From assembly GCA_039714075.1 (NCBI GenBank), contig JBDLKA010000064.1:1-20292 (forward strand): a DNA stretch of 20,292 nt, read 5' to 3'. The stretch is from Candidatus Krumholzibacteriota bacterium. GTDB lineage: Bacteria; Krumholzibacteriota; Krumholzibacteriia; LZORAL124-64-63. Made by a program: the position numbers and the translations under genes. Numbering within the stretch: position 1 is the first letter of the stretch; each line of letters begins with the position of its first letter. Shown one piece after another: positions 162 to 19,279 of the stretch. A model generated the notes under the pieces. The model was not told the origin of the DNA. It did no database searches and worked only from the letters and a program-made list of their open reading frames with translations.

Positions 162-190
162 TTGTATAGGCCACCGGCGCCCCATATCCT
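162..190 (+). promoter_or_regulatory. Putative sigma70 promoter of the decaheme/porin operon
   Basis: TTGTAT (162-167), 17 bp spacer, TATCCT (185-190), with an AT-rich tract upstream; RBS GGAGG at 223-227. Confidence 0.45.
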
Positions 191-233: not shown

Positions 234-1157
234 ATGCTGCGTCTGATTCTACCGGTCGCGGGAATTCTCCTGTTGAGCCCGGGTATCGCGGCAAGCGGCG
301 TTTCCTTCGTCGATGCTTTCGAGGTTCCCGCTGGCGCCGACTATGTCGGATCCGAGACCTGTCTCGACTGCCACGATGATGTCGGCGAATTCTACGCCAA
401 CTCCCCCCACTCTCCCGAGCGCGGACTTGCCATCCCGGGCACCGGGATTGCCGGCTGCGAGGCTTGCCACGGACCCGGCAGCCTCCATGTGGAAGAGGAG
501 GGTGACGGTTTCATCATCGGACCCGGGATCCTGGCGAGCCAGGACCAGGGCGTCAAGGTTGCCATGTGCACCCAGTGCCATACTGATCAGGGACTGGAAT
601 GGACCGGCGGCCCCCATGCGGGCACGGACATCTCCTGTGCCAATTGCCACACCGATCAGGTCCATTTCGCCGGTGGCGTCACCCCCGTTTCCGATTTCCG
701 GAACAAGGGCGAATTCTGCCTGCAGTGCCACCCGGCCCAGGTCGCGGATTTCCGGCTTCCCTTCCGTCATCGCGTACTCGAGGGCCAGCTCGACTGCCAG
801 GATTGCCACGATCCCCACGCGGATTTCGACCAGACCGCCTGGAACGGCATGAACAGCGTCTGTCTGGAATGTCATGTGGAAATGGAAGGCCCCTTCGTCT
901 ACGAACACGAAGGCGTGGCCAGCGAGGACTGCGTGACCTGCCACCGTCCCCACGGTTCGAATCACGACAAGTTGCTCATCACCGAATCCAACAGCATGTG
1001 CCTGCAGTGCCATTTCGAACAGGGCTTCAATGCCGCCGACGGTTGGACGATGGGTGCAATGGGACACTCGACCCCTCTGAACGCAGAAGCACGTTGCTAC
1101 GACTGTCACACCGAAGTTCACGGATCGAATTCCGATCCGAACTTCAAGGACCAGTAA
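234..1157 (+). CDS. mtrA: DmsE/MtrA-family periplasmic decaheme c-type cytochrome
   Basis: Start moved to ATG 234 (GGAGG RBS, hydrophobic signal peptide MLRLILPVAGILLLSPGIAA). Ten CXXCH motifs (CLDCH, CEACH, CTQCH, CANCH, CLQCH, CQDCH, CLECH, CVTCH, CLQCH, CYDCH) and family-typical YVGSETCxxCH, GPFVYEH, CHxPHGS and CHTEVHGSN motifs. Confidence 0.88.
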   Translation: MLRLILPVAGILLLSPGIAASGVSFVDAFEVPAGADYVGSETCLDCHDDVGEFYANSPHSPERGLAIPGTGIAGCEACHGPGSLHVEEEGDGFIIGPGILASQDQGVKVAMCTQCHTDQGLEWTGGPHAGTDISCANCHTDQVHFAGGVTPVSDFRNKGEFCLQCHPAQVADFRLPFRHRVLEGQLDCQDCHDPHADFDQTAWNGMNSVCLECHVEMEGPFVYEHEGVASEDCVTCHRPHGSNHDKLLITESNSMCLQCHFEQGFNAADGWTMGAMGHSTPLNAEARCYDCHTEVHGSNSDPNFKDQ

Positions 1158-1169
1158 AGGAGTACGACC

Positions 1170-3110
1170 ATGAAGATGAATAGGACGATGACCGTTACGG
1201 TCCTGGGCCTGGCGCTTCTGGCGTACGCCTTGCCGACCCTGGCCGAAGACACCGTGGACCTGCCCGCCCAGGCCCAGCGCATCTGGGCTCCGACGGGTGA
1301 TTTGATCGGACAGAACAACCATGGAACGGCCACCTTCCAGGCCAAGGACCCGCACGGCAACGAAGCCAAGGGGGCCGAGGACTGGCAACTGGTCCAGAAA
1401 TATTCCGGCGAGGGGTTGTTCGGATATTTCCGCACCCGCCAGGACGGCTCCCGATACTGGCTGCGGGCTTCCGGAGACAACGGAGGCACGGGCGGCCCGG
1501 TCGGCAAGATCGACCTGGGCGGCAACATTCCCGGCAAATTGAAGTGGAGCATCGAATACCGGGATTTCGACTACTTCTACGACCGGACCAGCGAGATGCG
1601 GGCGCCGGGCTTCGCCGCTCCCCCGCCTCCGCCGGAACTCGGGATCCTGCCCGAACTCAACTGGCGGCGGGGTTCCCTGCAGGCCGCCTACCGCCTGTCC
1701 GACAAATTCTCGTTGGCCGGCGGCTTCAACCGGAAATGCCGTCATGGTGAAAAGGGGAGCCTTTTGCGGGGCCTGTTCAACTCCGGAGCATCCGTCCCCG
1801 GCAGGAAGCTTTTCGATACCTCGACCAATGAATTCTGGGGCGGGGTCGGCTTCGCCACCGGAAGTTTCGGCTCGGATCTGAACCTGAGCTACCGCAGCAC
1901 CGAAGGGACCCGCGCCCTGGAGGGCCCGCATTACTACTCCGACGACCAGACCCGGTTCGGCGCCAGACTAGGGCTCTCCTATGTCCTGAACGACAGGTTC
2001 AAGCTTGTCGGGCACGGGGCAACCTCCAAACTGGAAAACACCGGTTGGGACAATACGGGACTCAGAACCTACGATCTCAATGGTGAAACAAAAACCAACG
2101 CCGGGCAGATCGGATTGCTGGCCCGGTTGGGGAAATCCGGCAACCTGGCCGCTTCCGCGAATTTCCGAAGTCTGGATACCGACGCCCGGGCCAACCTGGC
2201 GGCGGACATCCAGCAGGCCACTGACCGCAAGCGGGACAGCCAGGATTATCGGGTCTCCTTCAACTACCACGGGCTGGCCAAGACACGACTGCGGCTCGAT
2301 TACCGGTACGGCACCTCCAACCTGGACCAGACCGTGGCCGAGGGAGACGTTCCGGGGGGCGGTCAGGTCGGTGACTACCAGGTGACCAACCAGACCAGGA
2401 CCCGGCAGGACCTGGGCTTGCGCGGCCGTTACCGTTTCGGCTCCGCGATGTCCATCAAGGCCGTGGTCGCGTGGCGGAAGCTGGAGATCGACCAGAAGGA
2501 TCCCACGCTCTCCAACCCGGCCAACCCGTTGACCTTCTGGATGGGCGACCGGAACCAGGACCGTCTGCGCTGGGAGTTGGCCCTGCGCATGCGCCTCGGA
2601 CGGTGGGTCCGTTTCGACATCGGCCACCAGGCCATCGACCAGACCTTCGAGCGCAAGGATTTCGGACTGAGCGAATCCACCTGGAAGGCCAACCGCGGTT
2701 TCACCAACCTGACCTGGACGCCCGGCGGGGGCAGCCTGGACCTCTACGGCATGTTCTCCTACGGGGTGGAGGAATACGCCCTGACCACCGATCCCGTGCC
2801 GACGACGGACATGAACGCGATCGCCTACAACGGGAGCACCATGCGGTTCAGTCCGGGCGCCACGCTCCGCCTGGGTGACAACCTCCGCCTCGAAGGCCAC
2901 TACGAAGGCATCAGGTTCGAGGATACCGGCAACGAAGACGTCATCAGGAAGCTGCAGGCCGACCATGACCGGCTCGCCCTGCGGGCCGGTTATCAGGTCT
3001 CGACCTGGGCCAGGGTGTCCGCTTCCTACACGCGCAATGAATTCGACGAAAACAGGTGGGACGATTACATCCATCACCTGTACGCCGTTTCGGTTTCGAA
3101 AACTTTCTGA
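1170..3110 (+). CDS. mtrB: MtrB/PioB-like outer-membrane beta-barrel (porin partner of the decaheme)
   Basis: AAGGAG RBS; signal peptide ending in TLA-E; 646 aa of alternating amphipathic beta-strand pattern; C-terminal Phe (YAVSVSKTF, BAM-type signal); 12 bp downstream of the decaheme gene. Confidence 0.75.
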   Translation: MKMNRTMTVTVLGLALLAYALPTLAEDTVDLPAQAQRIWAPTGDLIGQNNHGTATFQAKDPHGNEAKGAEDWQLVQKYSGEGLFGYFRTRQDGSRYWLRASGDNGGTGGPVGKIDLGGNIPGKLKWSIEYRDFDYFYDRTSEMRAPGFAAPPPPPELGILPELNWRRGSLQAAYRLSDKFSLAGGFNRKCRHGEKGSLLRGLFNSGASVPGRKLFDTSTNEFWGGVGFATGSFGSDLNLSYRSTEGTRALEGPHYYSDDQTRFGARLGLSYVLNDRFKLVGHGATSKLENTGWDNTGLRTYDLNGETKTNAGQIGLLARLGKSGNLAASANFRSLDTDARANLAADIQQATDRKRDSQDYRVSFNYHGLAKTRLRLDYRYGTSNLDQTVAEGDVPGGGQVGDYQVTNQTRTRQDLGLRGRYRFGSAMSIKAVVAWRKLEIDQKDPTLSNPANPLTFWMGDRNQDRLRWELALRMRLGRWVRFDIGHQAIDQTFERKDFGLSESTWKANRGFTNLTWTPGGGSLDLYGMFSYGVEEYALTTDPVPTTDMNAIAYNGSTMRFSPGATLRLGDNLRLEGHYEGIRFEDTGNEDVIRKLQADHDRLALRAGYQVSTWARVSASYTRNEFDENRWDDYIHHLYAVSVSKTF

Positions 3111-3126
3111 TTGACGATGACCAACC

Positions 3127-3154
3127 GGGGGCCCCGAAGGGGGCCCTCTTTTTT
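3127..3154 (+). terminator. Rho-independent terminator after the porin gene
   Basis: GGGGGCCCC-GAAG-GGGGCCCTC followed by TTTTTT. Confidence 0.85.
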
Positions 3155-3212
3155 CCACCTGGTGAACCCTTCTAACTCCCACCATTTCTGTATGTTATAT
3201 TAAAAACAAATA

Positions 3213-3241
3213 TTGACAAATTTTTCACAGGACGCCATTTT
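3213..3241 (+). promoter_or_regulatory. Sigma70 promoter of the TetR-cytochrome-rhodanese operon
   Basis: Perfect TTGACA (3213-3218), 17 bp spacer, CATTTT (3236-3241), AT-rich UP-like tract at 3190-3212. Confidence 0.6.
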
Positions 3242-3245
3242 CCCG

Positions 3246-3265
3246 GTAGGTAAACGTTTCCTTAC
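3246..3265. promoter_or_regulatory. Imperfect 20-bp palindrome, probable TetR operator
   Basis: GTAGGTAAAC|GTTTCCTTAC (8 of 10 positions symmetric) lies over the predicted transcription start, just upstream of the TetR gene. Confidence 0.6.
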
Positions 3266-3283
3266 TCAATGAGGGAAGAGATT

Positions 3284-3931
3284 GTGAACCCCGTTAACGG
3301 CCCCCCGAACCGGCGCCTGCAGATCCTCACCGAGGCCACTCATCTTTTTGCCGCCAAGGGATTCGAGGGTGCGTCCATGCGGACCATCGCCAAAGCCTGC
3401 GGCATCACCGAGGCCGCCATCTACCGCCATTTCACCAGCAAGAACGATCTGTATGAACAGGTCATCACCGCCAAGGCTGTTCAGCACAACATCGCCGGAC
3501 AATTGGAGACCTTCTCCTCCGACTGGAGTATCGAGCAGGTTTTGCGGGCAATCGCCGAACACATCCTGGAGATGGCCAGGCAGGACCCGGAGTTGATGCG
3601 CCTGATGGTCAACAACAGCCTCGAGCGCGGCTCCTCGGTGGCCCGGGTCCTCTTCAAGGAAGTCCGTCTGCCCTACATCACCTATATGTCGGGTGAATTG
3701 ACGAAGCGCATTGCCGCCGGTGAAATCCGCGCCATCGACCCGGTGATCACCAGCCGCTGCTTCGTGGGCATGGTCATGGACTGCGCCCTCAACGTCGGAG
3801 TCTGGAACCGGATCGCGGGCCTGGATATCGCCGCCGACGACGTGGTGTGCAACAACGTTCCCATTTTCGCCCTCGGTCTTTCCAAGGATTTCGGAACCGA
3901 TAACCCCGTTACCCAACCAGGGAGAGCCTGA
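3284..3931 (+). CDS. TetR/AcrR-family transcriptional regulator
   Basis: N-terminal HTH ILTEATHLFAAKGFEGASMRTIAKACGITEAAIYRHFTSKNDL. GTG 3284 after GAGGGAAGAG is preferred as start (ATG 3269 is an alternative). Its stop overlaps the next ATG (TGATG). Confidence 0.9.
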   Translation: MNPVNGPPNRRLQILTEATHLFAAKGFEGASMRTIAKACGITEAAIYRHFTSKNDLYEQVITAKAVQHNIAGQLETFSSDWSIEQVLRAIAEHILEMARQDPELMRLMVNNSLERGSSVARVLFKEVRLPYITYMSGELTKRIAAGEIRAIDPVITSRCFVGMVMDCALNVGVWNRIAGLDIAADDVVCNNVPIFALGLSKDFGTDNPVTQPGRA

Positions 3932-5397
3932 TGAAACGCTTCATCATCCTACCCGTCCTACTCCTCCTGGCGCTTGTCGTCCTGTGGGGATGCGACAACG
4001 ACACGTCCAACGATCCGGTCGATCCCGGAGCCGGTGACATTCCTCCGGAAAAATCCTGTCTGGGCTGCCATTCGAGCGAGGAACTACTGAAGGCGGCTAT
4101 TGGGGATACATCAGGATCAATGGTCCTGCTTCGTGCGAAAGACGGCGGCTGAGGTGGCGAAGTTCCCACGCTGGAAGCGTGGCAAAAAGTCTTCATCGAC
4201 CTGGGGAACAATTATGGCGCGGGTTTCGTCGCCAGTGTCCATGGTCCGAATTACACAGGGCAGGCCATTCCCCACAAGCTTTCCTGCCAAGCCTGTCATG
4301 CGGGACCCGAGGACAACAATTTCAACGGCATGGCCGAGGCCCATGTGGGCATGGTCCCCGACCCCAGCAGGCCGGGCGAGGTAGGATGCAACGCCACCGG
4401 CTGCCACAGTGCCGAACCATTTGCTTCCGCCTGTTCGTCCAGTGACTGCCATCCCACCCATGCGGAGAACTGGACCTCCAGCCTCCACGCCAACCTCCAG
4501 GGCGAGGTCAATGCCGTGGAAGGCCGCTGTGCCATCGACCTGGACCAGTCCGGCTTTCGCCCTTCTTTCAACAACCAGTGCGCCCAGTGCCACGCCACCT
4601 GCGGCCAATGCCACGTTTCACGACCCAACAGCTCCGGCGGCGGATTTGTCTACCTGGAGGGCGCCACGGTTTCCCGTTCGCATCTTTTCCAGAGCAAGCC
4701 CCACATGACCGAACAGTGTACCGCCTGTCATGGCACAAGGATCGCCACGGACTACCTGAAGCAGGGTGATGGGATTCCCGAAACGAATGTCGAGGACATC
4801 CATTGGAGGCTCCTTTCCTTCACCTGCATCGATTGTCACAGCGGCAATGAACTTCACGGTAACGGCCAGGTCCTGGACCATCGCTACGAGGTGGCGGAAA
4901 TGCCCCGTTGCGAAAAGTGCCACAGCAGCCTGGAGCCGGGTAACGACTTCCATGATTTCCACGTGGGAGTGGAGGGCCGCGACCTGCAATGCCAGATATG
5001 CCATTCCCAGCCCTATCGGAATTGTACGGGATGCCACAACACGGTTGACGGAACCGTATACGACGAAGAGTTCAACCTGAAGATCGCCAGGAACGACCCG
5101 ACGGCGTTCCCCTACCGCCAGGACAACCCCTATCGCCCTGACAACAAGGGGTATGACTTCGTGCTGGTCAGGCACGTCCCGGTCGCGCGAAACACGTACG
5201 AACACTGGGGATTGGTCGATATGCCCAACTACACGGGCAAACCGACCTGGTTATACACGTCGCCGCACAACATCGTCAAAAACACTCCCCGGGCCGCCGA
5301 CTGCGGCAGCTGTCACGATTCCGACTTCTACCTGAAGACCAGCGACTTGACGACACCCGACGAGCGGACCGCCAACGCCGGGATCGTCATGGATTGA
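3931..5397 (+). CDS. Multiheme c-type cytochrome lipoprotein with probable selenocysteine (TGA 4150-4152, Sec74); 488 aa, 10 CXXCH plus 2 CX4CH
   Basis: ORFs 3931..4152 and 4330..5397 are in the same frame. The 59 codons between them are open (GGEVPTLEAWQKVFIDLG...SCQACHAG) and contain a heme motif. The only signal peptide/lipobox (LWG-C21) is upstream of the TGA. SECIS-like hairpin at 4166-4182. Confidence 0.8.
4150..4182 (+). other. In-frame UGA plus candidate bacterial SECIS element
   Basis: TGA, 13 nt, then CCACGCT-GGA-AGCGTGG (perfect 7-bp stem, G at the first loop positions, loop about 20 nt after the UGA). Confidence 0.7.
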
Positions 5398-5502
5398 GAA
5401 AGTCGAGAGGTGCGGGCGTTATAACGATGCCCGCCGAAGTAAGAAGGGTGACTCCACCCACCACCCGGACCTTTAACTTTCAGGTCCCTGCAAGGAGAAA
5501 AA

Positions 5503-6546
5503 ATGCACAAGCGACTTACCTGGATGCTTCTCATGCTCATGGCATTGCTGGTCTTCGTCGGTTGTTCGGACGATGACGACCCTGCCGCACCACCGGCGGC
5601 AACCAATTTCGAGACCATAGCTGAAGCAGTCGAAGCCTACCTGCCGGTCGTCGGCACTTCGTACATCAAGGCGGTCGACCTGAACCCCATGGTCAACGCC
5701 GATCCGCCGACCACCGTGGTCTTCGACATCAGGAATGCCGATTATTATGCGTCTGGCCACATCAAGGGCGCGATATCCACAACCCTCGCGGACATCGTTA
5801 CCGCGGTCGAGGCAGAAGGTCTGGCCAAAACCGACCATCTCGTAATCGCCTGTGACACGGGTCAGGTCGCCGGGCACGCGGTATTGGCCCTGCGGTTGCT
5901 AGGTTACGAGAACGCCAAGACCCTAAAGTTCGGCATGAGTTCCTGGAACGATAAAGGCACCGGTCCCAGGTGGACCGAACCCGTCGCCCCGGCGACGACC
6001 TCCGGTTCCTGCAAGGACGACCTGGCGCCGACCAACATCGAAGTCACCGAAAACGCACTCGGTGACGATGACCTCCAGGACTACCCCACCGGGCAGAAAA
6101 CCCTCCGGGACGCCGTGCTGGACATGCTGGCCGCCGGCTTTCAGAAAACAACCATGGGCGACGTCAATTTGGCCGGTAACATGGACACCTACTTCTGGCT
6201 CAATTACGTTCCCATGGACGACTATACCGACCAGGGTGTCACGCCGGGCCACGTGAAAGGCGCCTACCAATTCTCACCCAATGGTTCCAACGACATCGAC
6301 AGGAACCTGAAGATGAAGTACCTGCCCACCGACGGCACGACCATCCTTGTCTACTGCTACACGGGCCAGGGGTCAAGCCAGGCCGTCGCTGCCTTGAATG
6401 TTCTCGGCTACAAGGCCAAGTCGGTTAAATTCGGGTACAACCACCTGTTCTACAACAACGTTGGCTATACCGCCGGCAGCAAGTGGAAAGACACCATGTG
6501 CGGCGACTACCCGCTGTACAACAACGACGGTATCCTTATCCCCTAG
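5503..6546 (+). CDS. Tandem rhodanese-domain (sulfurtransferase-like) lipoprotein
   Basis: AAGGAG RBS; lipobox FVG-C; two rhodanese domains (VFDIRNADYYASGHIKGA...IACDTGQVA...LLGY and GHVKGA...VYCYTGQGS...VLGY), each with an active-site Cys. Confidence 0.88.
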   Translation: MHKRLTWMLLMLMALLVFVGCSDDDDPAAPPAATNFETIAEAVEAYLPVVGTSYIKAVDLNPMVNADPPTTVVFDIRNADYYASGHIKGAISTTLADIVTAVEAEGLAKTDHLVIACDTGQVAGHAVLALRLLGYENAKTLKFGMSSWNDKGTGPRWTEPVAPATTSGSCKDDLAPTNIEVTENALGDDDLQDYPTGQKTLRDAVLDMLAAGFQKTTMGDVNLAGNMDTYFWLNYVPMDDYTDQGVTPGHVKGAYQFSPNGSNDIDRNLKMKYLPTDGTTILVYCYTGQGSSQAVAALNVLGYKAKSVKFGYNHLFYNNVGYTAGSKWKDTMCGDYPLYNNDGILIP

Positions 6547-6559: not shown

Positions 6560-6608
6560 CTGGAATAATAAAGGGAGGGCCAAACGGCCCTCCCTTTGAT
6601 TATTCCAG
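6560..6608. terminator. Bidirectional terminator between the convergent rhodanese and patB genes
   Basis: CTGGAATAATAAAGGGAGGGCC-AAAC-GGCCCTCCCTTT(G)ATTATTCCAG: 22-bp stem with one bulge and A/T-rich flanks on both sides. Confidence 0.85.
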
Positions 6609-6615: not shown

Positions 6616-7764
6616 TCAATCATCCGCGGCAACAGCTCCCCTTAGCCGGTCGCATGCTGCCACCAGGGTGGCCCGCGTGCACCCGAAATTGAAACGGACA
6701 TACCCAGGCCCCGCAAAATCCCGCCCGTCCGAAAAACCCAGCCCGTGGTTTTCGAAATGACCGATCGGATCATCAAGGTCCAGGGCGTCCACATCGAGCC
6801 AAGCCAGATAGGTGGCTTCGACCGGAGCCATGGTGACGCCCGGCAAATCTTCCACCTGACCCGCCAGGTAGTCCCGGTTTTCCCGGAGATATTCATTCTG
6901 CGCGGCCAGCCAGTCGCTTCCGTCCCGCCAGGCGGCCAGGGCCGCCACATATCCCAGGACGTTGACCGACGGGACGATGCCGGCCTTGGCCCGGCGAAAA
7001 CGGCGGCGCAGACCGTCATCCGGTATCACGGCCAACGAACAGCTGAGCCCCGCCACGTTGAAGGCCTTGCTCGGCGCCATCAGGGTGATGGTCCGCGCGG
7101 CGATGTCTCGCCCGAGGGCCGCCATGGGCACATGCTTCACGCCCTCGGCCAGGATCAACTGGCTGTGGATCTCGTCGCTGCAGATGACCGTCCGGTTTTC
7201 CAGGCAGGTCTCGGCGACCATTTCCAGTTCCTCGCGGCGCCAGGCCCGACCCACCGGATTGTGGGGATGGCACCACAACAGCACCGAACAGTTGTCGTCC
7301 AGCCCGGCCGCCAGCCTGCGGTGGTCCACGGACCACCCGGCAAGGTTGTCACCGGACAGGGGAATCGTGACCAGTTTGCGGTCCATGAGGGCGGGCGCCT
7401 TCAGGAAGGGCGGGTAGACGGGCGTCAGGACAGCCACTCCGTCACCCGACGTCCCGACGGCACGGCAGGTGACATTGATTCCGCTGACCAGGCCGGGCAG
7501 CCAGACCAGCCAGGCGGGATCAACCTCCCAACCCCATTCGCTTTTACAGGTTTCGACAGTCGTTTCCACCAGTTCCGCCGGTGGGTCACCGTACCCGAAC
7601 ACCCCGTGTTCAACCCGCCGTGCCAAGGCCTCGATCACCGCAGGGGAACAACGGAAATCCGTATCGGCCACCCACAGGGGCAGGATGTCACGGCCGACGT
7701 ACCTGGCCCATTTGTGGCTGTCGGTGCCCGTCCGTTCCACCGGGGTGTCGAAATCGAATTCCAC
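6616..7764 (-). CDS. patB: PatB/MalY-family PLP-dependent cystathionine beta-lyase / cysteine-S-conjugate C-S lyase
   Basis: Motifs FDFDTPVERTGTDSHKW, LPLWVADTDF, HGVFGY, CHPHNPVGR, SDEIH, APSKAFNVAGL (PLP lysine), EATYLAWLD, RFNFGC. Confidence 0.92.
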   Translation of the reverse strand: MEFDFDTPVERTGTDSHKWARYVGRDILPLWVADTDFRCSPAVIEALARRVEHGVFGYGDPPAELVETTVETCKSEWGWEVDPAWLVWLPGLVSGINVTCRAVGTSGDGVAVLTPVYPPFLKAPALMDRKLVTIPLSGDNLAGWSVDHRRLAAGLDDNCSVLLWCHPHNPVGRAWRREELEMVAETCLENRTVICSDEIHSQLILAEGVKHVPMAALGRDIAARTITLMAPSKAFNVAGLSCSLAVIPDDGLRRRFRRAKAGIVPSVNVLGYVAALAAWRDGSDWLAAQNEYLRENRDYLAGQVEDLPGVTMAPVEATYLAWLDVDALDLDDPIGHFENHGLGFSDGRDFAGPGYVRFNFGCTRATLVAACDRLRGAVAADD

Positions 7765-9109: not shown

Positions 9110-10294
9110 CTACTTGCGCCCACCACCCCGCCGCAGCATGGGACCGAATTTACCGTGGACCTGGTCCATGATACGGTCCAGTTTCCGGTCCCGATCCCGG
9201 TCGCGGTCGGGAAACAGCTCCGCCTGCCCCTCGCCCGGCCGCACCAGGTTCGACGCCGTCACCCCGACAAGACGCAGCGACCGGCCCCGGCGCCCCAGCT
9301 TGACGGCCAGCAGACCGCGGGCGGAGTCCCTGATATCCACACTCGAATCACTGGGTTGGAACAGGGTTTCGCTGCGCGTATGGGTCGTGAAATCGGGGTA
9401 GCGGGCCTTGAGAGTCACCGTACGGGCCAGGAATCCGTGGGACCGCAGGCGGCGGGCCACCTTGGCCGCCAAGTGGTCCAGGATGTCCTGCAGATGGTCC
9501 GCGTCGCCGATATCCTCCCGGAACGTGGTCTCGTTGCCGATGGATTTCGCTTCGTGCACCGGGACGACGGGCCGCTCGTCATGGCCGACCGCCAGTTCCA
9601 GAAGGTGGGCGGCGTGGTCGCCGAACTGTTCGACCAGAAGTTCGGGCGGGATGGCCAGCATGTCCCCCACCTTGCGGATGCCGAACCGGTGCATCTGCTT
9701 CTCGGCGACCTTCCCCACACCCCAGAGCTTGCCGATGGGCAGGGACGCCAACAGGTCGCGGGCCCGGTCCGGAGAAATGACGACGAAACCGTCGGGTTTC
9801 TCCAGGTCGCTGGCCAGCTTGGCCAGGAACTTGTTGGCTGCCAGGCCCACCGAGGCGACCAGCCCGACCTCCCGGAGGATCCGCTCCTTGATCGTCCGGC
9901 CTACTTCTTCCGCCGAACCGAACAGGCGGCGGCAGCCGGTCACGTCCAGAAAGGCCTCGTCGATGGACAGGGGTTCGACCAGGGGCGTGTAGTCATCGAA
10001 GATGGCGAAGACCTGCTGGGAGATTTCGGCGTAACGGTCCATGCGGCCGCGCAGAAAAACGCCGTCGGGACACAGCCTGACGGCCCGGGCGGCGCTCATG
10101 GCGCTGTGAACCCCGTACCGGCGGGCTTCGTAACTGGCAGCCGCGACCACGCCCCGTCCTTCGGGAGTTCCTCCCACCATGACGGGTTTGCCCTTCAGGG
10201 AGGGATCATCCAACACCTCGACCGAAGCATAGAACGCGTCCATGTCTATGTGCAGGATGGCCCGGTCCGGAAACATGGAATTGCTGGTCGTCAT
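9110..10294 (-). CDS. dinB: DNA polymerase IV (Y-family)
   Basis: ILHIDMDAFYASVE, RGVVAAASYEARRYGVHSAM, EPLSIDEAFLDV, NKFLAKLASDLEKPDG, LWGVG, KSIGNETTF, LRLVGV. Confidence 0.96.
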   Translation of the reverse strand: MTTSNSMFPDRAILHIDMDAFYASVEVLDDPSLKGKPVMVGGTPEGRGVVAAASYEARRYGVHSAMSAARAVRLCPDGVFLRGRMDRYAEISQQVFAIFDDYTPLVEPLSIDEAFLDVTGCRRLFGSAEEVGRTIKERILREVGLVASVGLAANKFLAKLASDLEKPDGFVVISPDRARDLLASLPIGKLWGVGKVAEKQMHRFGIRKVGDMLAIPPELLVEQFGDHAAHLLELAVGHDERPVVPVHEAKSIGNETTFREDIGDADHLQDILDHLAAKVARRLRSHGFLARTVTLKARYPDFTTHTRSETLFQPSDSSVDIRDSARGLLAVKLGRRGRSLRLVGVTASNLVRPGEGQAELFPDRDRDRDRKLDRIMDQVHGKFGPMLRRGGGRK

Positions 10295-10365
10295 GGCCTT
10301 TCCGGGGGTTGGGTGCTATGGTGGAGCCCGACAGCGATCCGGTCACCTCTTGCGGGGAAGGTAAC

Positions 10366-11163
10366 ATGGATATCCGTCTTTCCGCCATCCACCTCTATCC
10401 GGTCAAAGGCATCCGCGGTGTGTCCGTGGCGGCGGCCCAGGTGGAACGCGCCGGTCTGCGGCACGATCGGCGCTGGATCATCGTTGACGAGCGGGGAAAA
10501 TTCATCAGCCAACGGACCCATCCCCGGTTGGCCCTCATCAGCGGCAATTTCGACGGGGACAGACTTGAATTGGCCGGCCCGGGCCGGGAACCTTTCCAGC
10601 TTAAGGTGCCCGCGGGAAACCACCGTGCCGAGGTAACGGTGTGGAACGACAGGGTCGATGCCGCGGTCGCCGGGCCCCAGGCCGACCGCTGGTTGTCCGC
10701 CTTCCTGGACCAACCCTGCCGTCTGGCCTATCTGGATGACGCCGCGGCCAGGCCCATCACCTCGGCCGCCGGCCGGCCGGCCGAAACCGTGAGTTTTGCC
10801 GACGGTTATCCCTGCCTGCTGACCTCCACCGCTTCGGTGACCGATCTCAACGGCCGCCTGGACGACCCCGTGCCCATGGACCGGTTCCGGCCGAATCTGG
10901 TGGTCACGGGGACCGACGCCTTCGCCGAGGACTCCTGGGCCAAGGTTGCCATCGGGGAGGCCGTCTTCCGTGTCGCGGGTCCCTGCAGCAGGTGCGGGGT
11001 CACCACTGTGGACCAGGCCACGGGGGAACGCGCCTCGGAAGAGCCCCTGCGCACCCTGGCCACCTACCGTCAAACAGCCAAGGGGATCGAATTCGGGATC
11101 AACCTTGTCCCCGAACGGGAAGGGACCATTTCCGTCGGGGACGAGGTCAGGGTGGAGGAATAG
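10366..11163 (+). CDS. MOSC-domain protein (YcbX/mARC-like, N-terminal beta-barrel plus MOSC)
   Basis: Start ATG 10366 after GGGGAAGG; IHLYPVKG, GLRHDRRW, FISQRTHPRLALI, SFADGYP, MDRFRPNLVV, FAEDSW, PCSRC. Confidence 0.92.
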   Translation: MDIRLSAIHLYPVKGIRGVSVAAAQVERAGLRHDRRWIIVDERGKFISQRTHPRLALISGNFDGDRLELAGPGREPFQLKVPAGNHRAEVTVWNDRVDAAVAGPQADRWLSAFLDQPCRLAYLDDAAARPITSAAGRPAETVSFADGYPCLLTSTASVTDLNGRLDDPVPMDRFRPNLVVTGTDAFAEDSWAKVAIGEAVFRVAGPCSRCGVTTVDQATGERASEEPLRTLATYRQTAKGIEFGINLVPEREGTISVGDEVRVEE

Positions 11164-11444
11164 GTGACCGGGGACCGGATTCGTGGTAGTTTCGGGCCAA
11201 ACCAGGATGTATTTCGTCTTTTTTATTCCGATTCAAGGATAGTGTAAGGTGTTGTCATTTTTAATTTTAAACCCATCTGGTGAACCTCATTTTTTTCTGG
11301 ACTTTACCCTGGACCCCACTAACTTTCAATTAGTCTACAAACATCGCAACTATGAAATTACTGGGTGTCACTTGGGTCACCCGACGGCTGGAAAAACAGC
11401 CTGATTCCTGACGGGAACCCGAAACCGCCGAAAGGTGCCCGACG

Positions 11445-11945
11445 ATGAAACGCCTCTTCACCTTCGTATTCATCACGGCCGTCCTGTGGCTCATGTGGCT
11501 GGCCTTCGCCGGCAGCCTGGACCCCCAGGAAATGATCGCCGGCGCGTTGGTCGCGGTCATGGTGACCCTGCTGCGCAGCGGCGGTCCCTGCCTGCTGGGC
11601 GGACCGGAAATTTTGCATCCCCGGCGGGTCCTCTACGCCCTGCTCTACCTGCCGTTCATGGTCTGGTCCATCATCATGGCCAACCTGGACGTCGCCCGGC
11701 GCATTCTCAGCCCCCGGCTGGCCATCAACCCGGGGATCGTCAAGGTCAAGACGCGCCTGCAAAGCCCCGTCGGCCGCATGATTCTGGCCAACAGCATCAC
11801 CCTGACGCCCGGCACCCTGTCCGTGGATATCGCCGGCGACGACATGTACATCCACTGGGTGGATGTGGAATCGCGCGACGCGGAAGCCGCTTCGCAGAAA
11901 ATCGCGGCCGGTTTCGAGAAGTATCTGGAGGTCATCTTTGGTTGA
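11445..11945 (+). CDS. mnhE: Na+/H+ antiporter subunit E (MnhE/MrpE; MbxA-like)
   Basis: IIMANLDVARRILSPRLAINPGIV, LANSITLTPGTLSVDI, YIHW. Confidence 0.93.
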   Translation: MKRLFTFVFITAVLWLMWLAFAGSLDPQEMIAGALVAVMVTLLRSGGPCLLGGPEILHPRRVLYALLYLPFMVWSIIMANLDVARRILSPRLAINPGIVKVKTRLQSPVGRMILANSITLTPGTLSVDIAGDDMYIHWVDVESRDAEAASQKIAAGFEKYLEVIFG

Positions 11946-12198
11946 TCTGATTCTTAAAGCCGCCCTCGTCTTCGCGGGATCCGGAGTGGCCCTGGCCACC
12001 GTCCAGCTCCTGCGTGGACCGGACGCCCCCAACCGGGCCGTGGCCCTCGACGTGCTGACCCTGATCACCATGCCCCTGCTGGTGGGATCGGCCATCTTCA
12101 CGGGCCGGATCATCTATCTCGACGTGGCGCTGGTCTACGCCGTCCTGGCTTTCCTGGGCGTCGTGGCCCTGGCCCGCTACTACGATCGGGGGATCTGA
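11938..12198 (+). CDS. mnhF: Na+/H+ antiporter subunit F (MnhF/MrpF; MbxB-like)
   Basis: TTG start 11938 after GGAGG, overlapping the mnhE stop; LLRGPDAPNRAVALD, YLDVALVYAVLAFLGVVALARY. Confidence 0.9.
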   Translation: MVDLILKAALVFAGSGVALATVQLLRGPDAPNRAVALDVLTLITMPLLVGSAIFTGRIIYLDVALVYAVLAFLGVVALARYYDRGI

Positions 12199-12199
12199 C

Positions 12200-12595
12200 A
12201 TGACCCTGAACGACACGCCCCTGAACCTGATCGGCGCGGTGCTGACCCTGGCCGGCTCGATGTTCCTGTTCCTCGGGGCCCTGGGCATTTTCCGGATGCC
12301 CGACCTCTACAACAGGATGCAGGCCGGCACCAAGGCCACCACCCTGGGCAACATGCTGACCCTGGCGGGCCTGGGTCTGCTGGCCCCCGGCTGGCTGCCC
12401 AAGATCGTGTTGATCATTCTTTTTGTCCTGATCACCAACCCCATCAGCAGCCACGCCCTGGCCCGGGCCGCCCACAAGTCGGGCCTGCCCCTGGCCGCCG
12501 GGTCGGTCCTGGACCAGCTGCGCGAGGACGAGGACGCCGTGGCCGCGCTTGAAGCCGAGGGCCGCGCTTCTTCCGCGACGGAGGTGGACCAATGA
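12200..12595 (+). CDS. mnhG: Na+/H+ antiporter subunit G (MnhG/MrpG; MbxC-like)
   Basis: GALGIFRMPDLYNRMQAGTKATTLG, TNPISSHALARAA. Confidence 0.93.
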   Translation: MTLNDTPLNLIGAVLTLAGSMFLFLGALGIFRMPDLYNRMQAGTKATTLGNMLTLAGLGLLAPGWLPKIVLIILFVLITNPISSHALARAAHKSGLPLAAGSVLDQLREDEDAVAALEAEGRASSATEVDQ

Positions 12596-12831
12596 TCTAT
12601 CTCGACCTTTTGATCTGTCTGGTAACGGTTCTGGCCGCCGTGGGCGCCATGCGCAGCCGCAACCTGGTGTCCGCCGCAGTGATGGTGGGCGCGGTCAGCC
12701 TGATGGTCAGCTACCTGTTTGTGCGCATGAGCGCGCCGGACGTGGCCATGACCGAGGCGGCCATCGGCGCGGGCCTGAGCACCCTGATCTTTTTGATCGC
12801 CATCCGCCGCACCGGGGAGGACGAAGGATGA
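12592..12831 (+). CDS. DUF4040 / MbhD-like small subunit (MrpA C-terminal fragment)
   Basis: APDVAMTEAAIGAGLST motif; three TM helices; ATGA overlaps at both ends. Confidence 0.88.
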   Translation: MIYLDLLICLVTVLAAVGAMRSRNLVSAAVMVGAVSLMVSYLFVRMSAPDVAMTEAAIGAGLSTLIFLIAIRRTGEDEG

Positions 12832-13541
12832 AACAGATTTTTTCCCTGGTCCTGCTGGTGATCATGGGCGTCATGCTCTGGTCCCTGATTCCGCTGGGCC
12901 AGCCGACCGAACCGGGCGAGGTGGCGGAGCACTATATCCGGCACGGCATCGAAGAGAACCGCGGGGCCAACCTGGTGACCAGCGTGATCGTCAACTACCG
13001 GGGTTTCGACACCCTGGGCGAGGTGACGGTCCTGTTCCTGTCGGTTGCCGGCGCGGGCTTCGTCCTGCGTCGCCGTGAGGGCCTGGCGCCGCTGACGGCC
13101 CGCCCCTCGAGCGAGATCCTTCAGACGGGCGCCCGCATGCTGTTCGCGCCCCTGATAGTGTTCGGAGCCTACATCTTCGTCCACGGCCACCTGTCCCCCG
13201 GGGGCGGTTTCCAGGGCGGGGCCGTCGTGGCCTCGGCCGTGATGCTGCTCCTGCTGGCGGACCGCGACCACCGTCTGCCCCACGGCTTCATGTCCTGGCT
13301 GGAATCGGCCGCGGGATTCGGCTACGTGCTGACGGGCCTGGCGGGACTCATGGTGGCGGGCTCGTTCCTGTCCAACCAGGGCGTCCTTCCCCTGGGAACC
13401 TGGAACCGGCTGTTCTCCGGCGGCGTGATCCCCGTCATCTACATCCTGGTCGGCCTGAAGGTCGGCACCGAGCTGAGCGTTCTGCTGGAAACCATGATGA
13501 ACTCGGGCCGACCGGCCGACACCACGGGAGGCGAGCATTGA
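12828..13541 (+). CDS. mnhB: Na+/H+ antiporter subunit B (MnhB; MbhE+MbhF-type fusion)
   Basis: True start ATG 12828 (MKQIFSLV); NLVTSVIVNYRGFDTLGE and HGHLSPGGGFQGG motifs. Confidence 0.9.
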   Translation: MKQIFSLVLLVIMGVMLWSLIPLGQPTEPGEVAEHYIRHGIEENRGANLVTSVIVNYRGFDTLGEVTVLFLSVAGAGFVLRRREGLAPLTARPSSEILQTGARMLFAPLIVFGAYIFVHGHLSPGGGFQGGAVVASAVMLLLLADRDHRLPHGFMSWLESAAGFGYVLTGLAGLMVAGSFLSNQGVLPLGTWNRLFSGGVIPVIYILVGLKVGTELSVLLETMMNSGRPADTTGGEH

Positions 13542-13906
13542 ACACCCTGACTCCCGCCACCCTGTATCTGGCCACGGCCATCGCCCTGATCCTCATCGGG
13601 TTCGCGGGACTTCTGGTCCGCCGCAACATCCTGAAGATGGTCCTGGGTTTCGCCCTGGTCGACACGGGCATCCACCTGCTCATCGCCACGTTGGGCAGCA
13701 ATCCCGGAAAGGCGGCGCCCATCCTGGACTCCGCCGAACTGGCCGCCGATCCCGGCCTGGTCGTCGATCCGGTGCCCCAGGCGCTGGTGCTGACCGCCAT
13801 CGTCATCGGCCTGGGCGTGACCGCCCTGATGCTGGCCTACGTGGTCCGCCTCTTCGCGCTGAAAAAGACCCTGGACGTGAGTGAATTCGGGAGGCTGAAG
13901 TGGTAA
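13538..13906 (+). CDS. mnhC: Na+/H+ antiporter subunit C (MnhC/MrpC, NuoK-like)
   Basis: RRNILKMVLG, DPVPQALVLTAIVIGLGVTA. Confidence 0.93.
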   Translation: MNTLTPATLYLATAIALILIGFAGLLVRRNILKMVLGFALVDTGIHLLIATLGSNPGKAAPILDSAELAADPGLVVDPVPQALVLTAIVIGLGVTALMLAYVVRLFALKKTLDVSEFGRLKW

Positions 13907-16900
13907 ACCCCGTTCTTCTTGTCGCCGTACCGTTGGCCGCGGCCTTTCTGCTGCCTTTGTTCGGCAAGGTCGGCCGCGCGGCCGCCCGGACGGCCCAGGT
14001 CTTGACCATCGTCTTCACGGCCGCCGTTTCGGTGTCCTGGATCGTGGCCTTCGCCTCGGGCGCGGCCCCCGAACCCCTGAACATCCTGACCGGCGGTTAC
14101 GACGGCCCGATAGGCATCAATCTGCACTACGGCCTGCCCGAGGCGATATTCTGCCTGCTGGCTTCGCTGACCACCCTGGCCGGTTCCCTGTACCTGGGCG
14201 CCCGCGAGGACGCCGCCACGGTCGGGCGCAGCGGCCTGCTGCAACTGCTGATCATGGTCGGCGCCTTCGGCCTGATCATGACCCGCGACCTGTTCAACCT
14301 CTTCGTCTTCCTGGAAATCGCCTCCATCGGCACCTATGCCCTGGTCGCCTTCGGCAAAGAGGAAAAGGCCCTCGAGGCCGGTTTCAAGTACATGCTGATC
14401 GGCGCCGCGGCCAGCGCCTTCCTGCTGATCGGCATCGCCTTCCTGTACAAGATGACCGGCACGTTGAACATCGACGACATGGCCGGCAAGATGCCGGCCG
14501 CCGCCACCGCGGGTCTGGCCACGGTCATGCTGTTCCTGCTGGCGGGCATGGCCATCGAATTGAAGCTGCTGCCGGTCAACGGCCCCGCGCTGGACCTCTA
14601 CGACGGCGCCGAACCCGGCGTGATGGCCCTGCTGGTCGGCACCACCGTCAACGGCGTCCTGTTCGCCTTCTGGAAGATGAGCAGCCTTTTCCCCGGCTCC
14701 TGGGACACGGCCATCATGGCCCTGGGCATGATCACCTTCGTGGGCAGCAACCTGCTGGCCACCGGCCAGGACCGCCCCCGGCGGATGCTCGGTTACAGTT
14801 CCAGCGGCCAGATCGGGCTGGTCGTCTTTTTGATTCCCCTGATCCGCCTCGATGTCGTGCCCTTGGCCGCCGCCGGGCTGCTGTTGATCAACCACACCCT
14901 GGCCAAGACCGGCCTGCTCTGGTTGGCCGGATGCATCACCGGTGACGGCCGCAAGGACTGGCTGGGCGCCTTCCGGGGCAGCGTGGCCGGCCGCACGGCC
15001 TTGATCGTCTTCATCCTGGCCATCGTCGGTCTGCCGCCCTTCCCCGGCTTCTGGGGCAAGTGGCAGGCCCTGTCCGGCATGGCGGCAAACGGATTCGGCT
15101 GGTGGATCGTGCCCCTGCTGATCGGCTCGCTCCTGGAATTCGTCTACTACTTCGGCTGGTACCGCCGCGTGCAATCGTCCCGGCCGGACGAGGCCCCCAT
15201 GCCCGGTTCCCTCAGACCTCTGGCCGACCTGGCGGGCGTCGTACCCTTCGCCCTGGGCTCCCTCGTTTTCGGCCTGTGGACCCTGCGCCACCTCGCCGGA
15301 CCCCAGGACCAGGGTTGGCTGTTCCTGGCCGCCGCCGGCGCCGTCCTCATCATCGTGCGGCGCTTGCCCCAGACCATCCTTTCGGCCACGGTCCTGGGAG
15401 CCCTGGCCGTGGCGGGATGGGTATTGTTCACCGCCGGGTCGCTGGTCCCCTCCACGCCGGGCGGCCTTTTCCTGCTGATGGTCATGACCGGCGCCGTGGT
15501 CACCGCGCTGGCCGGACTGGGCCGGATCAACCGTCGGGACAGTTACCAGGGCCTGTTCCTGATCCTGGTCGCTTCACTGGTGATGCTGACCAGGGCCGAG
15601 TCCCTGCTCGCGTTTTTCGTGGCCTGGGAAGTGATGACCTGGGCAAGCTACCTGATCATCGGCTTCGGCCGCAACGGCGCCCGGGCCAGCCAACTCTATA
15701 TCGTCTTTTCCGGCGCCGCGGGCTTCCTGCTGCTCGGTGGCATGATGCTGGCCATCGGGGCCGGCCAGACGACCCTGACGGGTCTGGGATTCCTGACCGG
15801 CGGCGCCGCCGTCTGGGTCTGGGGCCTGCTGGTGGTCGGATTCCTGGTCAAGGCCGCGGCCTGGGGCGCCCACGTCTGGGCACCCGGCGCCTATTCCGAA
15901 TCCCCGGACCTGTTCACCCCGTTCCTGTCGGGCGTGATCAGCAAGATTCCCATGTTCGGCCTGGCCATGGCGGCCTTCCGCATCGGTGCGGGCAACCTGC
16001 CGGCGCTGGGCGCGACCCTGGATGCGACCTGGCTGTTGGCGGTGGTCGGCGGCGTGACCGCTTTCGGCATGACCCTGGTCGGCGTCTTCCAGGAAGACGC
16101 CAAGAAGCTGCTGGCCTACTCCTCGGTCGGCCAGGTGGGCTACATCGTCGTCGGCCTGGCGGTGCTGACGCCCCTGGGCTGGACCGCCGCCCTGTTCCAC
16201 GCCGTGCACCACCTGCTGTTCAAGGGGCTGTTGTTCCTGGCGATCGCCGGCGTGGTCATGCGCACCGGCACCCGCACCATGTACGAGATGGGCGGACTCA
16301 TCAAGAAGATGCCCATGAGCTTCATCTCCGTGCTGATCGGCATCATCGCCCTGTCCGGTGTCCCGCCCCTGGCGGGCTTCACGGGCAAGTGGCTGCTTTA
16401 CCAAGCCCTGCTTGAACGCGGCTGGCTCTTCATCCTGGTCCTGATGATGTTCGCCTCGGTGGTGGCCTTCGTCTACCTGTTCCGGCTGATCCACACCGTC
16501 TTCCTGGGCCAGCTCAAGACCGTCCACCAGACGGTGAAGGAAGCCCCCCTGCCCCTGGCCCTGGCCCAGGTGCTGCTCATCGGCGCCATCATGGCCCTGT
16601 CGGTCTATCCCCAGTTGCTGCTGCAACCGCTGGACACCCTGGTCACCGGCCAGTTCAACGCCGGCGCTTTGACCTTCGCCGAAGGCGGCGCGCTGGTGGC
16701 CGGAGCCGGCCAGTTCAACCCCGTGAACATGATGATCCTGGTGATCGTCCTGTTCGCGGTGATGGTCCTGCTGCTTCTGGTCCTGGGTCCGAAGACCCGC
16801 AAGGTGGGCCAGCTGGACATCGTCTACCAGGGCGAGATCCCGCCGCCGCCCGAAGAGCTGCATTACGCCTCGAGATTCGCCCAGCCCTACCGGCGGGCCT

Positions 16901-17070
16901 GGGAGCCCCTGCTGGTGCCCCGGGTCACGGCTTTCTGGGCCTCGCTGGCCGACAACACCCAGGGCGTCGTCGACGTGCTGCGCCGTGTGTATTCGGGCAA
17001 CGGCCAGACCTATGTCATGTATTCGGTCCTGATGGTGGTCGTTTTCCACCTGCTGGGACTCGGGAGGTAG
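13900..17070 (+). CDS. mnhD: Double proton-translocating antiporter-like subunit (two fused MrpD/NuoN-M-like modules; MbxH+H'-like), 1056 aa
   Basis: Module 1: TRDLFNLFVFLEIAS..ALEAGFKY..RRMLGYSSSGQ..GLPPFPGFWGKW. Module 2: LLAFFVAWEVM..VKAAAWGAHVWAPGAY..KKLLAYSSVGQ..GVPPLAGFTGKW. Confidence 0.88.
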   Translation: MVNPVLLVAVPLAAAFLLPLFGKVGRAAARTAQVLTIVFTAAVSVSWIVAFASGAAPEPLNILTGGYDGPIGINLHYGLPEAIFCLLASLTTLAGSLYLGAREDAATVGRSGLLQLLIMVGAFGLIMTRDLFNLFVFLEIASIGTYALVAFGKEEKALEAGFKYMLIGAAASAFLLIGIAFLYKMTGTLNIDDMAGKMPAAATAGLATVMLFLLAGMAIELKLLPVNGPALDLYDGAEPGVMALLVGTTVNGVLFAFWKMSSLFPGSWDTAIMALGMITFVGSNLLATGQDRPRRMLGYSSSGQIGLVVFLIPLIRLDVVPLAAAGLLLINHTLAKTGLLWLAGCITGDGRKDWLGAFRGSVAGRTALIVFILAIVGLPPFPGFWGKWQALSGMAANGFGWWIVPLLIGSLLEFVYYFGWYRRVQSSRPDEAPMPGSLRPLADLAGVVPFALGSLVFGLWTLRHLAGPQDQGWLFLAAAGAVLIIVRRLPQTILSATVLGALAVAGWVLFTAGSLVPSTPGGLFLLMVMTGAVVTALAGLGRINRRDSYQGLFLILVASLVMLTRAESLLAFFVAWEVMTWASYLIIGFGRNGARASQLYIVFSGAAGFLLLGGMMLAIGAGQTTLTGLGFLTGGAAVWVWGLLVVGFLVKAAAWGAHVWAPGAYSESPDLFTPFLSGVISKIPMFGLAMAAFRIGAGNLPALGATLDATWLLAVVGGVTAFGMTLVGVFQEDAKKLLAYSSVGQVGYIVVGLAVLTPLGWTAALFHAVHHLLFKGLLFLAIAGVVMRTGTRTMYEMGGLIKKMPMSFISVLIGIIALSGVPPLAGFTGKWLLYQALLERGWLFILVLMMFASVVAFVYLFRLIHTVFLGQLKTVHQTVKEAPLPLALAQVLLIGAIMALSVYPQLLLQPLDTLVTGQFNAGALTFAEGGALVAGAGQFNPVNMMILVIVLFAVMVLLLLVLGPKTRKVGQLDIVYQGEIPPPPEELHYASRFAQPYRRAWEPLLVPRVTAFWASLADNTQGVVDVLRRVYSGNGQTYVMYSVLMVVVFHLLGLGR

Positions 17071-17074
17071 AGAA

Positions 17075-17989: not shown

Positions 17990-17998
17990 AGGAGCGTC

Positions 17999-18682: not shown

Positions 18683-18688
18683 GTTGTG

Positions 18689-19279
18689 ATGTTCGAGATC
18701 AATGAAAAATCCAATCCCGCGGACCCCACCCCGTCCGACCACGGCCAGGACATCCTGGCCCGGTTGCAGGCGCGGTTCGGAACCCTGGAATCCCACCGGC
18801 AGAAGCAGGATCTGTTGCGGATCGAGGTCGACCGGGACCGGTTGCTGCCCGTGCTCAGCTGGCTCAAGGGCGACACCCCCTTCGTGCAGCTGACCCACCT
18901 GACGGCGGTGGACTGGATCGAGGAAGACCGGTTCGAGCTGATCTACCTCGTGACCGCCCCCACCTTGAATCTGACGTTGATGATCGCCACGTACATCGAC
19001 CGGCAGACCGCGACGGCCGAATCGGTCTTCAACCTGTGGTTGCAGGCCGAGACCTACGAGCAGGAAATCAACGAGATGTTCGGCATCGATTTTCCCGGCA
19101 GCCCGCGGCAGGGCGTGCCCTTCATCCTCGAAGGCTGGGACGACATGCCCCCCATGCGCCGCGATTTCGACACCGTCGAGTATTGCGAACGAACCCACCC
19201 CGAACGGCCCGGACGCGAGCACACCGATCCCCGCACCTACGTGGGCAAAAAATTCGGGGAAAAGGGGTACCTCTCATGA
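18689..19279 (+). CDS. nuoC: NuoC-family subunit (MbxK-like)
   Basis: LTAVDWIEEDRFELIY, AETYEQEINEMFGIDFPGSP, LEGWDDMPPMRRDFDT; GTG 18686 is an alternative start. Confidence 0.9.
   Translation: MFEINEKSNPADPTPSDHGQDILARLQARFGTLESHRQKQDLLRIEVDRDRLLPVLSWLKGDTPFVQLTHLTAVDWIEEDRFELIYLVTAPTLNLTLMIATYIDRQTATAESVFNLWLQAETYEQEINEMFGIDFPGSPRQGVPFILEGWDDMPPMRRDFDTVEYCERTHPERPGREHTDPRTYVGKKFGEKGYLS

Follow-up and report, generated by a model that had tools for sequence, protein, structure and literature searches.

What does an MtrAB-type electron conduit serve when its neighbours encode, in place of MtrC, a selenocysteine (Sec) multiheme cytochrome and a rhodanese? The question is raised by a stretch of Candidatus Krumholzibacteriota DNA of 20,292 nucleotides (nt), hereinafter the window, which is the start of contig C64 (JBDLKA010000064.1) of a 4.06-Mb genome, G000 (G designates genomes, L loci, P homologues, C contigs of G000, f families, and g genera). 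The window contains five open reading frames (ORFs), all on the plus strand between positions 234 and 6546, whose translations correspond in order to a decaheme cytochrome, an outer-membrane barrel, a TetR-family regulator, the Sec cytochrome, and the rhodanese. An initial annotation had described this five-gene block; all five ORFs are present where it placed them, and profile and fold searches uphold their identities. We propose that the five genes may constitute one TetR-controlled module, namely a DmsEFAB-like, conduit-fed, and probably surface-facing sulfane-sulfur reductase. This is our preferred reading, held at a little under even confidence; within it, sulfane sulfur is the moderately probable substrate, and the reductive direction and the surface location are each about evenly poised. 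The proposal draws on gene identities, Sec recoding signals, synteny, gene fusions, a shared palindrome, and alternative input modules, all established by comparing sequences.

The Sec cytochrome gene (3931–5397, plus strand) encodes a lipoprotein of 488 amino acids (aa) with lipobox Cys21, ten CXXCH and two CX4CH motifs (up to 12 hemes), and a core resembling octaheme tetrathionate reductase (OTR). Its sole in-frame TGA (4150–4152) is codon 74, within the motif DGGUGG. At the same site, 159 loci from genomes and metagenomes (partly redundant, with some genomes fetched twice) have TGA in 155 cases, Cys in one, another residue in two, and a cut-off sequence in one. Most database homologues begin just past the UGA, and the full-length ones have Cys or have lost the residue. 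A hairpin resembling a Sec insertion sequence, with a 7-bp stem and a GGA loop, is located at 4166–4182 on the plus strand, 16–32 nt downstream of the UGA. Of 111 distinct segments, 107 have the GGA loop and 106 a hairpin more stable than codon-preserving shuffles (mean −11.3 versus −6.3 kcal/mol). Two stem positions pair in only 45 and 57 of these segments, and the window hairpin alone is not significant against dinucleotide shuffles (z −0.24 to −1.12). G000 encodes selA, selB, and selD (above cut-off) and a tRNA-Sec. By the sequence criteria for bacterial selenoproteins, the UGA is selenocysteine, as first annotated: the conserved TGA, the hairpin test across the family, the Cys homologues, and the SelABD and tRNA-Sec genes all speak for it. 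Site conservation and the hairpin test rule out a pseudogene. In one locus, L057 (G195), the cytochrome gene is spread over three frames, owing to a frameshifted copy or an assembly error, and the rest of the cassette is intact.

Profile and structure comparisons point to the cytochrome as a distant relative of OTR, with shared fold and heme order. Specifically, the best match of the family profile in the PDB is OTR (1SP3; E-value 1.2e-5), and hhalign of the family against the OTR of G000 itself gives 95.4%. The predicted structure (predicted local distance difference test, pLDDT, 65) matches the OTR fold with a Z score of 7.4 and a root-mean-square deviation of 4.7 (232 residues aligned), the next row being at 2.7; the Foldseek match is weak (E 0.025). 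Relative to the OTR (1SP3, TIGR04315)/MmcA group, the fold and the order of hemes 1–7 align and the heme-2 motif is kept, whereas three to four extra hemes, the lipid anchor, and the Sec arm set the cytochrome apart from OTR. The heme motif at C217 aligns with catalytic heme 2 of OTR, where OTR has a Lys ligand and a Cys (10.1101/2023.04.20.537704; this and the other papers on known systems are cited from parts of their text). Neither the Lys nor the Cys is conserved in the cytochrome; between H186 and C217 only Arg199 is conserved, and four Arg are conserved in the family. Because the family core has 11 conserved heme motifs and ten conserved extra His, one heme is left open, which is probably the C217 heme, the equivalent of OTR heme 2. 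Across 92 sequences, no Cys outside the heme motifs is conserved after position 74. Sec74, on a flexible and poorly modelled arm, would be the only conserved chalcogen candidate for the open heme, a geometry that we infer.

The cytochrome falls outside the named families. For 25 family members searched against NCBIfam, no cut-off was reached. We rejected membership of OTR (the window protein has no TIGR04315 match; two of the 25 homologues match weakly, best E 9.7e-5, with a cut-off of 375 bits), of ExtKL/MccSep (no NF040886 match in the 25), and of ExtM (E 1e-4, far below cut-off); ExtKL was not found in the whole genome of G000 either. The closest named relative (86%) comes from a Candidatus Krumholzibacteriia metagenome-assembled genome, and other homologues are named from Chloroflexota, KSB1, Deltaproteobacteria, and Thermodesulfobacteriota. 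Homologues P0217 and P0143, P0148, and P0158 have a fused N-terminal NapC/NrfH-like domain, or are longer, with additional hemes and a hydrophobic C-terminal tail. G000 as a whole contains 52 ORFs with at least two CXXCH motifs, among them an OTR that exceeds its family cut-off and weaker relatives, and three NrfD-type modules.

The constant partner of the cytochrome is the rhodanese. The window gene (5503–6546, plus strand) encodes a 347-aa tandem-rhodanese lipoprotein that matches PF00581 twice and retains both Cys117 and Cys285, in loops CDTGQ and CYTGQ; neither active-site Cys varies across 32 aligned homologues. The pairing of cytochrome and rhodanese proposed in the initial annotation holds well beyond the window: a rhodanese adjoins the cytochrome or is encoded within about 2 kb in 113 of 129 loci, and in the remaining 16 the downstream sequence is too short (13 loci) or there is no rhodanese (three loci, two of them with less than 100 nt upstream). 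Moreover, of 19 long homologues scanned, three fuse cytochrome and rhodanese in one protein; these came from the representative search, and a homologue search at 855–2440 aa found none. The Sec cytochrome and the rhodanese form a widespread core, and MtrAB is a lineage-specific addition. In metagenome loci, a 4Fe-4S protein is encoded beside the core in 22 cases, with cytochrome b561 in 11, and an NrfD/QrcD-type protein in seven, including one f1 locus. The core thus appears to accept electron inputs that are swapped by lineage, comparable to Shewanella, where DmsEF replaces a membrane anchor. In two metagenome clades (L109–L158 and L118–L157), the core adjoins the genes ccmABCEF for cytochrome c maturation. 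In the first rhodanese loop (window 5851–5865), close orthologues have CYTGQ where the window has CDTGQ, and Asp is also seen in L109. The rhodanese genes of L060–L092 change size by double-domain units, with two, four, or six domains, all with Cys.

In the window, the electron input is the conduit. The first gene (234–1157, plus strand) encodes a 307-aa decaheme cytochrome c of the MtrA/DmsE family with ten CXXCH motifs, which scores 197.1 bits against TIGR03508 (DmsE; cut-off 192.2). The second gene (1170–3110, plus strand) encodes a 646-aa outer-membrane barrel, assigned to a divergent MtrB-fold subfamily from its fold, its orthologue profiles, and its distribution. Searched directly, the window barrel has no match to Pfam MtrB_PioB (PF11854), and its PDB profile search did not retrieve MtrB. 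PF11854 is matched by 8 of 30 orthologues, and the clusters closest to the barrel in the ESM Atlas are those of MtrB/PioB (0.98). The AlphaFold model (pLDDT 85.8; about 26 long strands by our count) has MtrB (6R2Q_B) as its best fold match, with E 5e-17 and a template modelling (TM) score of 0.67, followed by TonB receptors at TM 0.35–0.46. Judged from the model, the barrel has a true MtrB fold. Membership of the GSU2204 family (NF041027) was rejected for want of a profile match. None of the five block proteins matches MtrC/OmcA (TIGR03507; the model was not run on the whole genome), and profile searches reveal neither a molybdenum catalytic subunit nor an Fe-S subunit among the five genes.

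Conduit and Sec cytochrome keep company in one family. The cytochrome is present in 73 of 208 phylum genomes, in five families, and the window-type barrel in 59 of the 208, all of family f1. Among 90 f1 genomes besides G000, 49 have both, four only the cytochrome, nine only the barrel, and 28 neither. The initial annotation had named conserved synteny as a check, and in 46 of the 53 f1 genomes with the cytochrome, the barrel lies no more than 1.2 kb upstream of it, three more being split over contigs; the adjacency spans 13 of 15 genera, with barrel identity down to 27%, and the genes flanking the cluster are not conserved. In the case of five distant barrels, a separate multiheme lipoprotein is encoded upstream or the contig is short. 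Sister barrels likewise bring their own upstream lipoprotein with 8–16 hemes, and the clade of the window barrel lacks one. In G110 (L059), mtrA, barrel, and cytochrome are contiguous even though Sec, tetR, rhodanese, and both palindromes (see below) are lost. A predicted complex of barrel residues 45–646 with the post-UGA cytochrome (score 0.00, mark 0.32) counts neither way. An acidic patch after the lipid Cys is a surface-export signal in Bacteroidetes; it is found in 33 of 66 predicted G000 lipoproteins and is uninformative on surface location.

Additional conduit genes were observed. G000 has a second mtrA copy at C5:88446–89369, at a contig end, with 90% amino-acid and 85% DNA identity and its own palindrome (7.9); it adjoins an S9-peptidase gene, which is the upstream neighbour of the cluster in relatives, and the contig ends 4 nt past its stop. 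The copy reflects either a duplication or strain mixture, one barrel copy being assembled in G000. G136 has two barrel-tetR-cytochrome copies. A second Sec-linked conduit of G000 is located on contig C55 (L174:8654–11949), where a GSU2203 decaheme and a GSU2204-family barrel, both above cut-off and the barrel with an in-frame UGA, are divergent from an 11-heme cytochrome gene.

The third gene suggests how the two halves are joined. It encodes a TetR-family regulator (3269–3931, plus strand; PF00440), probably from a GTG start at 3284 as judged from orthologue starts; its stop overlaps the cytochrome start (TGATG), and tetR is immediately 5' of the cytochrome gene in 38 of 40 phylum loci. Between barrel and tetR is an intrinsic terminator (3127–3154, plus strand; stem 3127–3148 and a T-run), which the initial annotation took to split the block into two transcription units. 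Terminator-like sites in the region are not enriched over shuffles (5 versus 8.2), but among 22 orthologous loci with long gaps, 19 have this terminator. Across 35 orthologous barrel-tetR gaps, 19 have the terminator, three are long without a called terminator, and 13 are shorter than 45 nt (starts estimated), which leaves no space for a terminator and is the spacing of a single operon. A putative σ70 promoter of tetR (3213–3241, plus strand) consists of TTGACA, a 17-nt spacer, and CATTTT, and its TTGAC box is conserved among the long-gap loci. For mtrA, a putative σ70 promoter (162–190, plus strand; TTGTAT, 17 nt, TATCCT) was picked by eye, with similar spacing in orthologues; a consensus promoter scan missed it.

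Both genes are preceded by 16-bp palindromes that are candidate TetR operators, namely GTCAACAATCGTTTAC at 198–213 before mtrA (matrix score 14.0) and GTAAACGTTTCCTTAC at 3250–3265 before tetR (11.3), the latter near the inferred tetR start site. The matrix was trained on 12 tetR-proximal sites, all from loci without MtrAB, and the mtrA site ranks first of 1688 control upstream regions of G000, whose 99.5th percentile is 7.6. There are 41 distinct mtrA upstream regions, 32 with tetR in the locus and nine without. Twenty of the former score at least 9, mostly 36–40 nt before the start, while eight mtrA regions without the TetR cassette, including those of G130, G139, and G110, score at most 4.4; for G152, whose cassette lies on a separate contig, the score is 11.8. 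In ten single-operon loci that we checked, the palindrome is gone at tetR and kept at mtrA (eight strong, two weak). The palindrome therefore accompanies the promoters of the regulator and of a target, and is lost with the regulator, the computational pattern of a TetR regulon. It probably binds this TetR, and conduit and cassette look co-regulated. With that, the caveat about the terminator falls, given the common palindrome and the 13 loci without room for a terminator. Genome-wide the matrix is unspecific (12 sites score at least 12, the top one outside upstream regions, and the tetR site only 11.3), and the scan gave no further convincing regulon member. In G019 (f3; L184:1501–1516), an operator-like palindrome separates two divergent genes, one encoding a membrane-anchored NapC/NrfH-like pentaheme and the other a cytochrome with 11 hemes. 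In this single case the TetR regulon may reach as far as quinol oxidation, here in a genome that has no MtrAB, and the control pattern was also matched once in G019.

A working mechanism can be sketched for the preferred sulfane-sulfur reductase, with the Sec cytochrome and the rhodanese as its catalytic core. The rhodanese would take sulfane sulfur from polysulfide or elemental sulfur (S0) onto its two cysteines. Sec74, on its glycine-rich arm, would attack the S–S bond, and the selenosulfide would be brought to the heme without a second histidine, probably at C217. The heme chain would then reduce the selenosulfide and release sulfide, in family f1 with electrons supplied by MtrA threaded through MtrB. 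Because this input makes most sense with outward-facing lipoproteins, we tentatively place cytochrome and rhodanese at the surface, as DmsAB behind DmsEF. Sec as a nucleophile beside an open heme and the rhodanese as carrier are suggested by MccSep, the Sec multiheme analogue with tested activity, in which Sec beside a heme reduces polysulfide (PMC13510729). A fuller version, which we consider unlikely in its entirety, is an uncatalogued OTR-derived selenoenzyme family whose tethered Sec arm replaces the Lys and Cys of OTR, perhaps with a His/Sec heme, as a plug-in sulfur reductase with rhodanese in several uncultured phyla; in one family it would have been moved to the surface behind MtrAB under one TetR switch, so that S0 or polysulfide would be respired outside the cell through a porin-cytochrome conduit.

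Each idea has a precedent: the DmsEFAB architecture, a Sec-heme polysulfide reductase, and Psr with a rhodanese. As in DmsEFAB and MtrCAB of Shewanella, a decaheme and an MtrB-fold barrel are encoded with lipoprotein terminal proteins (PMC9732548). Unlike these, the partner here is a Sec multiheme with a rhodanese and neither MtrC nor a molybdenum enzyme, a TetR gene lies in between, and within the phylum the conduit is optional. MccSep/ExtKL and the Geobacter ext cluster likewise combine a Sec multiheme, a rhodanese, and an outer-membrane protein (PMC13510729, PMC5877670), and in both Sec is preceded by Asp-Gly or similar. The block's cytochrome, however, is a lipoprotein with 11–12 hemes, Sec near the N terminus, and no conserved heme-ligating Cys, whereas MccSep/ExtKL is soluble, periplasmic, and has five hemes and U325 in its C-terminal part; the barrel is of MtrB type in contrast to ExtI, and the rhodanese does not match ExtH (NF040901). 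The initial comparison with the ext logic thus stands for the combination of Sec multiheme, rhodanese, and outer-membrane protein, and fails for the cytochrome, which is OTR-like and unrelated to ExtKL. DmsEFAB is the closer architectural model, given that the porin ExtI is small and that MccSep/ExtKL resides in the periplasm (PMC5877670, PMC13510729). GSU2203/GSU2204 (NF041028/NF041027) also link an MtrAB-type pair to selenocysteine, but there the Sec is in the barrel, and the window barrel contains neither UGA nor CXXCH. Finally, PsrABC with its rhodanese-type sulfur transferase resembles the module in its exported reductase, in the rhodanese lipoprotein included in the Psr operon, and in the Fe-S/NrfD-type input found here in other lineages (PMC12142623), a heme/Sec catalyst taking the place of the molybdenum subunit.

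Several observations weigh against the preferred reading. The TetR-cytochrome-rhodanese cassette is present in 8 of 12 f3 and 7 of 10 f4 genomes, and a DmsE-type decaheme was found in none of these 22 at E 1e-30. In G138, a clean mtrAB deletion joins the mtrA start to the barrel tail and leaves Sec and rhodanese intact, and conversely G130 and G139 retain mtrAB without the cassette. These cases make the conduit dispensable, a correction to the initial annotation. Provided that an outer membrane is present in those organisms, a core that works without a wire fits a periplasmic site, and MccSep, the only tested analogue, is periplasmic (PMC13510729). Other multiheme lipoproteins of G000 (C17 and C104) could partner MtrAB. 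Among the 32 TetR-linked mtrA promoters, seven lack the palindrome (mainly in g16, g9, and g14) and five have a weak one (4.8–7.4). As regards the enzyme, the Z score to OTR is within the range that the tool calls middling, residues 48–96 flanking Sec have pLDDT below 50, and Sec and Cys are both absent from position 74 in many of the full-length homologues. The genomes are related, so that the counts overstate independence.

The strongest alternative, itself improbable, is a periplasmic sulfane-sulfur reductase core with a co-regulated MtrAB that serves another surface partner or reaches extracellular S0 or Fe(III) directly. It would accommodate the 15 genomes with a cassette and no MtrA, the separate losses of conduit and cassette, the further lipoprotein cytochromes of G000, and the location of MccSep (PMC13510729). 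It is less easily reconciled with a gene order kept over 13 genera and a single operon in 13 of 35 loci, with the absence of the palindrome at the C17 and C104 lipoproteins, and with G110, which holds conduit and cytochrome together.

Rather more doubtful is the opposite direction, in which the Sec cytochrome, TsdA/SoxA-like with a His/Sec heme, would oxidize sulfide or persulfide, the rhodanese would remove the sulfane product, and MtrAB or quinol modules would carry the electrons off, either to acceptors outside the cell or inward. Nothing in the sequence fixes the direction, and MtrAB homologues without MtrC serve electron uptake too, as in MtoAB and PioAB, which counts for oxidation. Both are named in PMC9732548, and MccSep chemistry is likened to the reverse of TsdA/SoxAX (PMC13510729). 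Against oxidation, both of the closest comparisons, OTR by fold and MccSep as Sec analogue, are reductases, and the partner modules look like reductase inputs.

Selenium or tellurium handling is less probable still. In this reading the system would reduce selenite or elemental selenium at the envelope, either to detoxify or to supply the element, and the rhodanese would carry selenium; a SelD-like candidate ORF was seen by eye upstream in L003 and L004. Outside these two loci no selenium genes cluster with the core, and selenium is scarce relative to sulfur in such habitats. MccSep reduces selenite as well, with a sevenfold preference for polysulfide (PMC13510729), and ext genes influence selenite and tellurite reduction (PMC5877670). 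Just as improbable is an OTR relative mainly for electron transfer (MmcA-like) or nitrogen-oxide reduction (nitrite or hydroxylamine), a stand-in for MtrC with Sec accessory and protective: MmcA lacks the catalytic Lys and works as a conduit (10.1101/2023.04.20.537704) and homologues without Sec or Cys occur, but the heme-2 motif is kept, unlike in MmcA, Sec and hairpin are maintained across phyla, and the rhodanese partner is constant, with fusions present.

If the conduit-fed surface reductase with a sulfane carrier is correct, it would directly answer by what means cells gain access to insoluble sulfur; according to the MccSep paper, it is unknown how polysulfide crosses the outer membrane (PMC13510729). 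MtrAB-type wires would also gain a third type of terminal partner, and MtrAB without MtrC would no longer be an automatic sign of iron metabolism. With the cytochrome, a second and independent family of Sec multihemes would be added, one that was overlooked since databases truncate the protein at the UGA. In the literature searched, which left some selenoprotein compilations outside its coverage, we found no account of the cytochrome family or the cluster. The family is missing from the 119-family Table 1 of PMC13188914, although one entry there, WP_331457571.1, known here from the table, is a Sec form of TIGR04315 annotated in GenBank. Krumholzibacteria have been assigned potential iron cycling, and not this cluster, in the part of 10.1101/2020.09.22.307553 cited here. 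For this group of uncultured anaerobic bacteria, the module suggests sulfur breathing at the cell surface, testable without culturing the host because an operator, natural Cys-type homologues, and fused forms exist.

Downstream of the rhodanese gene, an inverted repeat (6571–6597) is followed by a convergent gene for a pyridoxal phosphate-dependent aminotransferase of class I/II (6616–7764; Pfam), which we take to be MalY/PatB-like and which stays beside the cluster in only a few close loci. In the region 9110–20292, candidates picked by eye are a DinB-like polymerase (9110–10294, minus strand), an MOSC-like protein (10309–11163, minus strand), and, from 11445 on, a long plus-strand operon resembling subunits of Mrp antiporters and membrane-bound hydrogenases.

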